A program made the position numbers and the translations under genes. Below the pieces are notes generated by a model. That model did not search any database. It was not told where the DNA came from and saw only the letters and a list, made by a program, of their open reading frames with translations. From IMG/VR virus record IMGVR_UViG_2657244971_000002: a stretch of DNA of 6,220 nucleotides, one strand, 5' to 3'. Position 1 is the first letter of the stretch. Each line of letters opens with the position of its first letter. Positions 1-4,460 of this stretch are shown in pieces. The stretch comes from a virus. Lineage: Duplodnaviria; Heunggongvirae; Uroviricota; Caudoviricetes.

Positions 1-1305
1 CTGAGACAATACGGCCCGACCACTGGCAGGTTTGCCCTTAATCGTCCAGCCACGCATATCAGGGATCACGCCTGACGGATAAGCCGCTGCAAGTTTCGGG
101 TATGCAGATTTGTCAAAAGCCTGCCCCTGCATCAGGGCATAACCAGACGGAACGGTATCTGATGGCCACGGGATTGGTGCGCCGACTGGGTAGCTTTCTG
201 GTGGAAGATTTTTCGAGGTATAAACTTCTGCCCAGTCTTCCTCAAAACCATAGCCATCTCTTGAGGAACGGTAGAACAGACCTCCATTTCTGTAATGTGC
301 CTTCATCTGCAAGGTCCGGCAACTTCCGACTCCGGTATAGAAGTTAACCAGAATATAGGTGTCGCCAGAGCGGGTGACATTGTAAGCGCCTGATTCGGCA
401 TTCCAGGGAACGCCACCATCCGCATCGGCATATGTATCCGTTGCCCTTCTGGCAAAAGCAGCCACATGCGCGGCGGTTAAAGTAATATCTTTGGAACCAT
501 CAAACTCAACACCAGAAACCCGTCTTGGCGTTTGCAGCTTTGTTGCTGTTAATGCATTACCGTTCAGACTTGCGGACAGTTTGGTTCCAATAACCAGTTC
601 GCCGGTTGCGTTATCAATAGAAAACGGTCTTAATGTATTCCAGCCACCATAAACATCACCTTGATTGGTAAGCAGCAGGTGAGTTTTAGCGCCATCATTA
701 CGCCATAATGCACCATACTCCCCACCTATCATTCGAATCTGATTACCACCACGCGCTACAATTTCGTCTGTGGCAAAAAGTTTTTTGCACGACAAGTTAT
801 CGTTAACGATTAACGAATTAGACTCATAAAAACCACGCCCACTCTTAAAATCAAGGATAACGTCCGCCGCGATACATTCAGTCGCCGGATTTGTTGCCCC
901 AAACTTATAGATCGTATCATTAACAACGAGATCAGCACCAGGTGCGGATATTGACAGGCCATCTTCGATAAACGCAAAAACAGGGAAAGCTGCGCCATCA
1001 ACATAGAACACAGAGCGCAAATCATCGCCCTTATTACTCATCATTATTGAGTGGATGGCTCGTTCATTGTTTTGATATTGCCAGAACATTCCATAAGCAT
1101 AACGCCCCCTGTCAGTCCAGCCGCCAGGCATAACAAATCCGTTAAACTCGCAGTTATTCATCGGATCGCCTGCGGTTCGCGTTGCCGTGGTGATAATGAC
1201 CCTTGATGCCAGTTCGCTTACTGAGCCAGCAGAACGCATAACAACAACAGGGTAATATTTTCCAGATGTTGCACCTGCAGGAGCGTTAACCCGCACATAA
1301 CGCAT
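1..1305 (-). CDS. stf: Side tail fiber protein (lambda Stf family), partial; 3' end continues beyond window position 1
   Basis: Manual translation of the minus strand gives one uninterrupted frame from ATG at 1305..1303 to position 1 (435 codons: [28 protein letters not shown] ... [64 protein letters not shown]). The C-terminal stretch matches my recollection of lambda/E. coli prophage Stf proteins. Not in the ORF track because there is no stop in the window. No clear Shine-Dalgarno before the ATG. Confidence 0.8.
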
Positions 1306-1549
1306 AACCGACACGGGCAGACTTCACCACATTCACCTCACGGATGTAGTCGCTGCCCATCGCATTCATGATGGCCCGCTGAAAGGGCAGTGTTTCCCAG
1401 CGCCCTTCCTGGTATGCGGATTCTTTCGGGAGATAGTAATTGGCATCCGCCCATTCAACGGCGGTCTGTGGCTCCGGCCTGAACAGTGAGCGAAGCCCGG
1501 CGCGGACAAAATGCCGCAGCCTGTTAACCTGACTGTTCGATATATTCAC
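1286..1549 (-). pseudogene. A: Terminase large subunit gpA, N-terminal fragment only (87 codons; intact gpA is several hundred residues longer)
   Basis: Translation [82 protein letters not shown] matches the lambda gpA N-terminus as I recall it, then diverges (ALCAG, stop). GTG start overlaps the Nu1 3' end as in lambda. Confidence 0.8.
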
Positions 1550-2069
1550 TCAGCAACCCCGGTATCAGTTCATCCAGCGCGGCTGCTTTGTTCATGGCTT
1601 TGATGATATCCCGTTTCAGGAAATCAACATGTCGGTTTTCCAGTTCCGGAAAACGCCGCTGCACCGACAGGGGGATCCCGTCGAGAATACTGGCAATTTC
1701 ACCTGCGATCCGCGACAGCACGAAAGTACAGAATGCGGTTTCCACCACTTCAGCTGAGTCTCTGGCATTCTTCAGTTCCTGTGCGTCGGCCTGCGCACGC
1801 GTAAGTCGATGGCGTTCGTACTCAATAGTCCCTGGCTGGAGATCTGCCTCGCTGGCCTGGCGCAGTTCTTCAACCTCCCGGCGCAGCTTTTCGTTCTCAA
1901 TTTCAGCATCCCTTTCGGCATACCATTTTATAACGGCGGCAGAGTCATAAAGCACCTCATTACCCTTGCCACCGCCTCGCAGAACGGGCATTCCCTGTTC
2001 CTGCCAGTTCTGAATGGTACGGATACTCGCACCGAAAATGTCAGCCAGCTGCTTTTTGTTGACTTCCAT
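1524..2069 (-). CDS. nohA: Terminase small subunit Nu1 (DNA-packaging protein), 181 aa
   Basis: Full-length translation MEVNKKQLADIFGASIRTIQNWQEQGMPVLRGGGKGNEVLYDSAAV ... SEYIEQSG corresponds to lambda Nu1 (N-terminal winged HTH) from memory. ATG at 2069, TAA at 1526..1524, 26-nt overlap with the A start. Confidence 0.93.
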   Translation of the reverse strand: MEVNKKQLADIFGASIRTIQNWQEQGMPVLRGGGKGNEVLYDSAAVIKWYAERDAEIENEKLRREVEELRQASEADLQPGTIEYERHRLTRAQADAQELKNARDSAEVVETAFCTFVLSRIAGEIASILDGIPLSVQRRFPELENRHVDFLKRDIIKAMNKAAALDELIPGLLSEYIEQSG

Positions 2070-2093
2070 TGTTCATTCCACGGCCAAAAACAG

Positions 2094-2215
2094 AGAAAGG
2101 AAACGACAAAGGCCCAAAAGCTCGTTTTCAGCACCTGTCGTTTCCTTTCTTTTCAGGGGGTATTTTAAATAAAAACATTAAGTTACAACGAAGAAGAACG
2201 GAAATGCCTTAAACC
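2094..2215 (-). other. cosB-like terminase-binding region (R-element repeats, probable IHF site) between cosN and Nu1
   Basis: Perfect 15-bp inverted repeat agaaaggaaacgaca (2094..2108) / tgtcgtttcctttct (2136..2150), 27 bp apart, plus a related tttccgttcttcttcg-type element near 2196..2211 on the minus strand. Position and sequence resemble lambda cosB R-sites (recalled). Confidence 0.6.
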
Positions 2216-2246
2216 GGAAAATTTTCATAAATAGCGAAAACCCGCG

Positions 2247-2258
2247 AGGTCGCCGCCC
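2247..2258 (-). other. cosN: 12-nt cohesive-end sequence (terminase nicking site)
   Basis: Plus strand 2247..2258 is aggtcgccgccc, whose reverse complement GGGCGGCGACCT is the lambda left cohesive end. Adjacent 2259..2274 cgtaacctgtcggatc is the reverse complement of the lambda right-end sequence GATCCGACAGGTTACG. Confidence 0.8.
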
Positions 2259-2457
2259 CGTAACCTGTCGGATCGCCGGAAAGGACCCGCAAAATGATAA
2301 TAATTATCATCTGCATGTCACAACGTGCATCTACGCCATCAAACCACGTCAAATAATCAATTATGACGCAGATATCGTATTAATTGATCTGCATCAACTT
2401 AACGTAAAAACAACTTCAGACAATACAAATCAGCGACACTGAATACGGGACAACCTC

Positions 2458-2643
2458 ATGTCAACGAAGAACAGAACCCGCAGAACAACAACCCGCAACA
2501 TCCGCTTTCCTAACCAAATGATTGAACAAATTAACATCGCTCTTGAGCAAAAAGGGTCCGGGAATTTCTCAGCCTGGGTCATTGAAGCCTGCCGCCGGAG
2601 ACTGTGCTCAGAAAACAGGTCAGACCAGATTGAAGCAATTTAG
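2458..2643 (+). CDS. ynfO: Small ribbon-helix-helix (Arc/MetJ-like) DNA-binding protein, 61 aa, YnfO-like
   Basis: ORF with ATG at 2458 and weak SD ggga 7 nt upstream. Arg/Thr-rich N-terminal arm ([11 protein letters not shown]), predicted beta-strand NIRFP, then helix / G-S-G-N-F-S turn / helix ([11 protein letters not shown]), typical of RHH folds. Position next to cos matches the Qin ynfO context (recalled). Confidence 0.78.
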
Positions 2644-2690
2644 ATAATCGTGCAGACTACGCCCCCTCATATCACATGGAAGGTTTATCT

Positions 2691-3101
2691 ATGGATCAGG
2701 TAGTCATTTTTAAACAAATATTTGATAAAGTTCGAAACGATTTAAACTATCAATGGTTTTATTCTGAGCTAAAACGTCACAATGTCTCACATTACATTTA
2801 CTATTTAGCCACAGAGAATGTTCATATTGTATTAAAAAATGATAATACAGTGTTATTAAAGGGCCTAAAAAACATTGTGTCTGTCAAATTTTCAAAGGAT
2901 AGGCATCTTATAGAAACGACCTCTAATAAGCTGAAATCCAGAGAGATCACATTTCAGGAATACAGAAGAAACCTTGCTAAAGCAGGAGTTTTTCGGTGGG
3001 TTACAAATATCCACGAACAAAAAAGATATTACTATACCTTTGATAATTCATTACTATTTACTGAAAGCATCCAGAAAACTACACAGATCTTACCACGCTA
3101 A
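2691..3101 (+). CDS. ydfO: DUF1398-family protein of unknown function, 136 aa, YdfO/YbcV-like
   Basis: Track ORF is 2676..3101. The internal ATG at 2691 is preferred because the SD-like ggaagg at 2678..2683 sits 7 nt upstream; the 2676 ATG has no SD. Family assignment from recalled similarity to Qin YdfO / DLP12 YbcV. Confidence 0.82.
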
Positions 3102-3109
3102 ACCATAAC

Positions 3110-3138
3110 GTCCGGCTTCTCTCACTCCTGAGCCGGAC
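3110..3138 (+). terminator. Possible stem-loop downstream of ydfO (8-bp GC-rich stem, 13-nt loop); weak or atypical terminator
   Basis: gtccggct (3110..3117) pairs perfectly with agccggac (3131..3138). Followed by tgcattggtttaataaaaa rather than a clean U-tract. Confidence 0.3.
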
Positions 3139-3200
3139 TGCATTGGTTTAATAAAAACCATCAACAATTGTGATTTAGATATTCGGAACCATTCAAATAT

Positions 3201-3223
3201 AACAAAACCCCGTAAAAACGAGG
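3201..3223 (-). terminator. Putative intrinsic terminator for gnsB
   Basis: Minus-strand RNA cctcg-uuuuua-cgggg followed by uuuuguuauauuu, about 30 nt downstream of the gnsB stop. Confidence 0.4.
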
Positions 3224-3252
3224 TTTATGGATAAATTTTATTATTGAATACA

Positions 3253-3426
3253 TCAGATTAAATTAATCTTGACATCATAGCTTTCAAGACCCGTCATTTT
3301 TTCCCGTGCGGTAAACTGAATACTGGTAACTTCTTTCCCGGTCTTTTTCTTAAGTTCAATAATTTTTTTTGTTATATATTCAGAAATATCTGCTTCTGCT
3401 TTTGTTTTTAAGTTTTCAATATTCAT
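3253..3426 (-). CDS. gnsB: GnsA/GnsB-family small protein, 57 aa
   Basis: Not in the ORF track (too short); found by translation: MNIENLKTKAEADISEYITKKIIELKKKTGKEVTSIQFTAREKMTGLESYDVKINLI. The FTAREKMTGLESYDVKI motif matches my recollection of E. coli GnsA/GnsB. SD gaggaa at 3435..3430; tandem ATGs at 3429 and 3426 (second chosen); TGA at 3255..3253. Confidence 0.8.
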   Translation of the reverse strand: MNIENLKTKAEADISEYITKKIIELKKKTGKEVTSIQFTAREKMTGLESYDVKINLI

Positions 3427-3894: not shown

Positions 3895-4099
3895 TCATTT
3901 TCACTTTTTTAAATCCAACGACAGACGGCTGGCATTTAAGTATTGTGAAATATTATCAAATGTAATCATCATTGATTTACAAAAGATACATTTTGCCCCG
4001 AAAGGATTCATGTCAGAAACATCAAAAGATGATGTTCTATACTGGGAACCATGACAACACGGGCATCTAAAGTGAATATGGTTTGTAATATTGTCTACC

Positions 4100-4312
4100 T
4101 CAAAGCGCCACTACATGAACAGCGGCAGGACCTTTAGGTCCGTTCTCAATACCAAATTCAACTTCCTGATTCTCAGTTAATGTTTTGAAATCGTTGCTCT
4201 GAATTGCTGAGAAATGGACAAACACATCTTTGCTGCCATCTTTCGGCGTGATGAAACCAAAACCTTTTTCAGGGTTAAACCATTTCACTAAACCAGTCAT
4301 TTTGTTAGACAT
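4100..4312 (-). CDS. cspI: CspA-family cold-shock protein, 70 aa
   Basis: Translation [70 protein letters not shown] carries the RNP1-like KGFGFI and RNP2-like VFVHF motifs. cspA-like context aaaggtaataatt before the ATG and aatgactggt downstream-box-like sequence inside the ORF. Confidence 0.93.
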
Positions 4313-4460
4313 AATTATTACCTTTTGAAGAAATTAGCCCTTGGGCAGAATGGTCCGAAAAAAATATCAGAGAGAAAAACCAACAAGGAAATCTCAAGAG
4401 GTACAAATAATAAAATTATAACAATGACTGCTTCAGATAAATTTGTAACAAACCAGAACA

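Follow-up and report, generated by a model that had tools for sequence, protein, structure and literature searches.

The window analyzed here, a stretch of 6,220 nucleotides, very probably carries the cosQ-cosN-cosB site and the small-terminase gene of a Qin-family defective lambdoid prophage, left behind by a single deletion. That one event took away gene A (large terminase) from its codon 83 onward, together with everything as far as midway through the side-tail-fibre gene, and we assign the cos site and the small-terminase gene nohA to a rare deletion variant of the defective Qin prophage of E. coli. Draft contig LLYN01000066.1 (assembly GCA_001484405.1) ends in 6.2 kb that are 100% identical to the window. 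Its gene order, based on megablast against complete E. coli genomes, RefSeq annotation (K-12 and strain 2020CK-00188), pairwise BLAST, and Pfam domains, consists of a tail-fibre fragment, an A stub, nohA (Nu1), cos, ynfO, ydfO, gnsB, ynfN, cspI, rzpQ, rrrQ, ydfR, and essQ. The late-region synteny of Qin, essQ-ydfR-rrrQ-rzpQ-cspI-ynfN-gnsB-ydfO-ynfO-cos-nohA-stfQ, was recovered, and the window is 98–99.8% identical to Qin of K-12 and other strains; gene order and identity together bear out the proposal of an earlier sequence-only reading that the element is of the Qin type. At the far end of the remnant on the source contig, the Pfam families DUF1283 and UPF0060 were identified, while the tail-fibre side leaves the contig. 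We take DUF1283 to be the YnfB family and UPF0060 to be the YnfA family; the expected Qin flank is presumably ynfA/ynfB on one side and ydfJ on the other.

Upstream of the window, the Qin remnant on the source contig (locus L012, positions 1-3417) is more reduced than that of K-12. A dicA-like HTH gene stands directly before a 32-aa fragment of DUF968 (ydfU), followed by the Q antiterminator; the rem-hokD-relBE-flxA block is apparently missing, and no integrase was called. The part of the source contig that was read, 11.5 kb, gave no call of an integrase or a replication gene, and the window has none. Within the window, positions 4073-4457 on the minus strand match the Rfam cspA thermoregulator (RF01766) with 114 bits, against a gathering score of 78, and the match spans the 5' leader and the coding start of the prophage cold-shock gene cspI.

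For the comparison with lambda, the ends of the lambda reference were joined and aligned to the minus strand of the window. Positions 2612 to 1304 of the window (minus strand) are collinear with lambda 48150-48502 and then 1-956. Sub-site positions were taken from PMC4669245 (Feiss et al. 2015) and PMC9026076 (Murialdo and Feiss 2022), with the exception of cosQ and the I1 core. The sub-sites are located in the window as follows:

2282 to 2288, minus strand: cosQ, GGGTCCT, the termination sub-site; lambda bp 48473-48479, identical in sequence and position.
2247 to 2258, minus strand: cohesive end of cosN, GGGCGGCGACCT; lambda bp 1-12, flanked by the nick sites.
2194 to 2209, minus strand: R3 of cosB, the critical TerS site; lambda bp 50-65, with one change, G54A, at window position 2205.
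2173 to 2185, no strand assigned: putative core of IHF site I1, between R3 and R2; lambda bp 74-86, identical to lambda.
2135 to 2150, plus strand: R2 of cosB; lambda bp 109-124, 16 of 16 bases identical, inverted relative to R3 and R1.
2094 to 2109, minus strand: R1 of cosB, the accessory TerS site; lambda bp 151-166, 15 of 16 bases identical, the outermost base being changed (C151T, window position 2109).

The lambda coordinates given for cosQ coincide with GGGTCCT in our lambda reference. The placement of the I1 core, which comes from a consensus match, is provisional: the core fits WATCAANNNNTTR with two mismatches, and an overlapping site fits it with one. Since the IHF consensus scan was statistically uninformative, with 103 matches found against 88 expected, I1 was assessed by its identity to lambda. 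Two changes flank the core, at lambda bp 72 and 73 (window positions 2187 and 2186), and bp 74-101 are identical.

Analysis of cosN revealed a single match to GGGCGGCGACCT in the window, on the minus strand and with no mismatches, against a chance expectation of 0.01. Identity to lambda is complete from 48487 to bp 53 (window positions 2206-2274), which covers the 16-bp cosN, the flanking bases, and the spacing between cosN and R3, so that the exact 12-nt lambda cohesive end with lambda-like flanks, as described earlier, is upheld. The interval from cosN to R3 contains no indel relative to lambda, and this unaltered spacing matters because even a 3-bp change in it has been reported to be severe (PMC9026076). 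In R3, the critical site, TerS contacts bp 55-63, with bp 56, 58, and 59 functionally mapped (PMC9026076); bases 55-65 are identical to lambda in the window, including the whole contact and these three key positions. Within cos, cosQ is the packaging-termination sub-site, and R1 is accessory and non-essential (PMC4669245). The perfect 15-bp inverted repeat that had been noticed in the position of cosB (2094-2108 and 2136-2150) is real and corresponds to R1 and R2; the repeat in lambda is 16 bp long, and it is 15 bp here because C151T alters the outermost base of R1. Nine differences from lambda, including one 1-bp deletion, fall between lambda bp 54 and 176, and only two of them lie inside sub-sites, at the edges of R3 (bp 54) and R1 (bp 151). 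The alignment to the joined lambda ends, which had been suggested as a check, shows no mismatch in the 12-nt site and the presence of R3, R2, R1, and the I1 core. The elements that packaging requires at its start (cosN and cosB) and at its end (cosQ and cosN) are all there, and the site is predicted to have the packaging specificity of lambda. On every sequence criterion tested, the segment appears as a member of the lambda-type cos family.

The R2/R1 repeat also has a predicted RNA fold. On the minus strand, which is the late-transcript strand, window positions 2075-2165 form a long hairpin of -33.6 kcal/mol (z = -4.75), and 0 of 200 shuffles were as stable. With CUCUGUUUUUGG on its 3' side, the hairpin has the look of a terminator placed shortly before the start of Nu1. 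A simple terminator scan did not report the R2/R1 hairpin.

On the cosB side, the terminase genes and the tail-fibre gene are arranged as follows:

1524 to 2069, minus strand: nohA, that is Nu1, the small terminase subunit; full length, 181 aa, with its start at the lambda position, bp 191.
1286 to 1549, minus strand: remnant of A, the large terminase subunit; its 82 lambda codons are followed by five from the junction (ALCAG) before the stop.
1303 to 1306, no strand assigned: deletion junction, from A codon 82 to an internal point of stf, with 3 bp of microhomology at 1304-1306.
1 to 1305, minus strand: C-terminal part of the side tail fibre, stfQ-like, with its frame still open where the window and the source contig end.

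The claim of a full-length Nu1 held: 180 of its 181 residues are identical to lambda (the change is L132I), and the protein matches Pfam Phage_Nu1 with E = 9e-101. The name nohA is that used by RefSeq for the Nu1 orthologue; a literature text search on nohA/Nu1 found nothing relevant. In the A remnant, the homology to lambda stops at window position 1304, equivalent to lambda bp 956, and a weak match to Pfam GpA_ATPase was obtained. The large terminase had been described as cut to 87 codons, which is correct for the length of the open reading frame, but genuine gpA codons number only 82 and the other five belong to the junction. TerL is absent beyond residue 82, and no head or tail gene remains between A and stf, in line with the earlier reading, as the junction joins the A stub directly to the tail-fibre fragment. 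An ATG at 1305-1303 (minus strand), made by the junction, starts the fibre frame within the final codons of the A' open reading frame, and the N-terminally truncated fibre could be translated by coupling to A'. The tail-fibre fragment contains the Pfam domains Gp34_trimer, Collar, and gp37_C, and RefSeq calls the matching region tail fibre.

A further deletion lies in ynfO (2458-2643, plus strand), where 58 bp are missing compared with K-12 and 2020CK-00188. An 11-bp direct repeat bounds the deleted stretch, with a single copy left at window positions 2605-2615, and the resulting frameshift gives a product of 61 aa against 77 aa. Among the top-ranked matches in 5426 complete E. coli genomes, none has the ynfO deletion, and all keep the 58 bp.

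Survey of complete E. coli genomes revealed the 231-bp cos segment in 4591 of 5426 (85%), with a median of two copies each, and the segment also occurs in 87 phage records. The compared loci differ in how far the lambda homology continues beyond cos:

K-12 Qin: lambda homology ends at bp 719.
Present window: lambda homology ends at bp 956.
K-12 DLP12: lambda homology ends at bp 1018.
Strain 2020CK-00188: lambda homology ends at bp 1893.
Strain MEW: gene A interrupted by IS100 near bp 1260.
Strain PEC389: operon complete.

In strain MEW (locus L011, positions 9762-13646), the rest of the head operon is intact beyond the IS100 that splits A at about lambda bp 1260. In strain PEC389 (locus L010, positions 7110-7807), an IS1 stands in place of the lysis and cold-shock block, and the head operon is intact.

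The cos allele of PEC389 is 100% identical to that of the window, including C72T, and it lies beside the full operon Nu1-A-W-B-C-D-E-FI and onwards; the PEC389 locus and the source contig differ at 2 of 1315 bases. Because this near-identical locus shows recent descent from a prophage with a complete operon, the intactness of cos requires no selection. On these sequence comparisons, cos and Nu1 appear to be intact by recent descent, and the deletion appears to be recent, leaving no time for decay.

The present site would very likely be cut by a terminase of lambda specificity, and its use in cis by a helper terminase, as had been proposed, may soundly and reasonably be expected. With the exception of C72T, every departure of cos from lambda recurs in complete lambda-like phage genomes (PhiR42_1, PhiR26_1, 2H10, and Kati). 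It is improbable that cos only looks intact and is in fact an inert relic, in which the changes at bp 54 (R3) or 72/73 (beside I1), or the chromosomal setting, block the assembly of terminase. What speaks for such a failure is that G54A falls within the nominal R3 (bp 50-65), the critical site, and that C72T, common only to four E. coli genomes including PEC389, was found in prophages only and in no phage genome compared. Against it, G54A lies outside the TerS contact at 55-63 and away from bp 56, 58, and 59, and it is carried by PhiR42_1, which, with other PhiR phages, is one of a set of temperate phages related to lambda that served in plaquing assays (PMC13190303). Position 54 is polymorphic even within the lineage, since Logan contig L013, with the same A'-stf junction, carries the lambda base there. 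C72T lies two bases outside the I1 core, which is unchanged, and the full allele including C72T stands beside a complete, uninterrupted head operon in PEC389. Moreover, IHF is dispensable for the wild-type lambda cos, which we also count against a failure at I1.

Two other explanations concern the deletion and the survival of the segment. The A'-stf junction could be an artefact of draft assembly, the contig ending inside a repeated tail-fibre gene, in which case the loss of the head genes would be unreal. The window is indeed the terminal 6.2 kb of a draft contig, and the junction is absent from the 5426 complete E. coli genomes searched; a 30-nt sequence across it also has no exact match in a one-genome-per-species collection, in which E. 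coli is represented by a single genome. The same junction DNA and the same 87-aa junction protein were nevertheless found on an independently assembled Logan contig from another sample, which differs from the source contig at 5 of 995 bases (99.5% identity), and 3 bp of microhomology is too little for an assembler to join. We rejected an assembly artefact on the independent Logan contig, and it keeps next to no probability. It is also quite unlikely, though less so than an artefact, that cos, a full TerS, and the TerS-binding N-terminus of TerL have been selected as a unit, either as a terminase decoy against lambdoid phages or as the satellite-like start of a one-directional, helper-driven transfer of the chromosome. 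Independent deletions do leave the same trio (the window at bp 956, DLP12 at bp 1018, and 2020CK-00188 at bp 1893), and the frequency of the cos segment among complete E. coli genomes points the same way, as does the binding of Nu1 by roughly the first 48 residues of gpA. The trio is not kept in every case, however, as the deletion in K-12 Qin cuts Nu1 itself (lambda bp 719); the source contig is so close to a prophage with an intact operon that there was no time for decay, and selection is not needed; no rpp-like redirecting gene is present, Nu1 itself adjoining cos; and the 11.5 kb of the source contig yielded no call of an integrase or replication gene. A recent, real deletion in a Qin-family prophage with an intact cos is the reading that we prefer.

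For such a recently truncated prophage, a mechanism can be outlined from established lambda biology (PMC4669245). Lacking TerL, prohead, and tail, the element would be unable to package itself and would depend on a terminase of lambda specificity coming in trans, either from a superinfecting phage or from an induced prophage in the same cell. TerS, bound to R3 and R2 with the IHF bend between them, would place TerL so that it nicks cosN, and the cutting of cosN would leave a double-strand break in the chromosome. The end on the ynfO side, not being held by terminase, would be recombinogenic and may lead to hybrid phages or gene conversion. The terminase-bound end on the cosB side would be fed in one direction into a helper prohead, beginning with Nu1, A', and stf and continuing into the host flank beyond window position 1. 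Unless a second cosQ-cosN lies at genome distance, within about 50 kb, packaging could not end properly, and the transfer of host DNA would be rare.

In lambda, a chromosome is completed only when a cosQ-cosN lies downstream (PMC4669245), so a lone chromosomal cos would be expected to give unfinished particles. For unexcised or excision-defective lambda prophages, packaging in situ and immature particles are described in passages of PMC8008629 that cite Sternberg and Weisberg (1975). The suggested mobilisation of adjacent DNA is therefore plausible at low efficiency and was overstated beyond that; efficient transfer of flanking DNA without a second cos is unlikely. The suggested formation of hybrid phages finds its support in an analogy with DLP12 only, where junctions adjoin cos and nu1 works (PMC3945230), as the literature on cos-stimulated exchange concerns DLP12 and not Qin. 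Of 19 junctions in lambda-DLP12 recombinants, 10 adjoin cos, and recombinants with the nu1 of DLP12 are viable (PMC3945230); recombination with DLP12 in the cos region is also described in PMC545071.

Comparison of the window with Qin of K-12 revealed the same locus and gene order (stfQ, nohA, cos, ynfO ... essQ) and, to the right of cosN, cosB alleles of the window's type. In K-12 Qin, the deletion starts from lambda bp 719, so that nohA is without its last codons and there is no A stub, whereas the window has a complete Nu1 and 82 codons of A. The window has the 58-bp deletion in ynfO in addition, and it is without the lambda-identical patch that K-12 Qin has to the left of cosN. Lambda hybrids reportedly use the cos of Qin, a point associated with work of Espion et al. 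in 1983 on lambda qin111 and Qin. Terminase is also said, in work of Murialdo from 1988, to be lethal in recombination-deficient cells through the cutting of chromosomal cos sites, which we do not count as evidence here.

The region of K-12 Qin in question (locus L001, positions about 8507-8750) takes in the patch and the bases from lambda bp 54 on. From lambda 48311 to 48486, the patch carries the lambda base at each of the 13 polymorphic sites. For the majority of the 13, all other compared sequences differ from lambda, and K-12 Qin turns to the Qin type from bp 54 on. The pattern places the end-point of a past exchange in the 69-bp interval of K-12 Qin that contains cosN, on the side expected for cos-stimulated recombination. 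We rejected the patch as proof of an exchange with lambda in the K-12 lineage, the allele being 100% identical in porcine UMNK88 and hence not confined to that lineage.

DLP12 of K-12 has the same architecture as the window, with a lambda-type cos, a full-length 546-bp Nu1 homologue (nohD), an A stub, and tail-fibre genes. Its A stub is the pseudogene aaaD, in which lambda homology reaches bp 1018 and is followed by tfaD. DLP12 is, however, another prophage, located elsewhere on the chromosome; upstream it has lambda-like R-Rz-bor and not the Qin lysis and cold-shock genes, and its cos alleles differ from those of the window, for example at lambda bp 53, 85, 187, and 188. With the cos of lambda itself, the window shares all sub-sites in equal order, orientation, and spacing; unlike in lambda, the cos of the window lies in a non-excising, non-replicating remnant without TerL. 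The window also resembles cos-type PICIs (PMC9026076) as a chromosomal element without morphogenesis genes whose cos would be cuttable by a lambda-like helper terminase. PICIs carry rpp beside cos and their own cosB, excise, replicate, and are packaged as unit genomes, whereas the window has Nu1 beside cos, a lambda-type cosB, and no redirecting function. A cos-type PICI or phage satellite was accordingly rejected as an identity for the segment, there being no rpp and a cosB of the lambda type. In the in situ packaging of an unexcised lambda prophage, as outlined in passages of PMC8008629, the chromosomal cos is cut and proheads take up the DNA lying on the Nu1 side, host sequences among it. 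The terminase and heads are in that case the prophage's own, while the window would need both from a helper phage.

An intact lambda-type cos in a defective prophage is common and well understood, and this biology is already known from the annotation of K-12 (nohA, nohD, and aaaD) and from the recombination literature. What is new here are alleles of minor interest, namely the exact deletion junction and the 58-bp ynfO deletion only. The window adds one rare deletion allele of Qin, which matters little beyond correct annotation. Together, the truncation end-points (lambda bp 719, 956, 1018, and 1893, and the IS100 at about 1260) form a small natural series of prophage decay. A chromosomal cos is a practical concern for lambda-packaged cosmid or phagemid particles, as it can compete for terminase or be cut. 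In the wider family, intact cos sites in defective prophages are recognised places of recombination between lambdoid phages and the chromosome.
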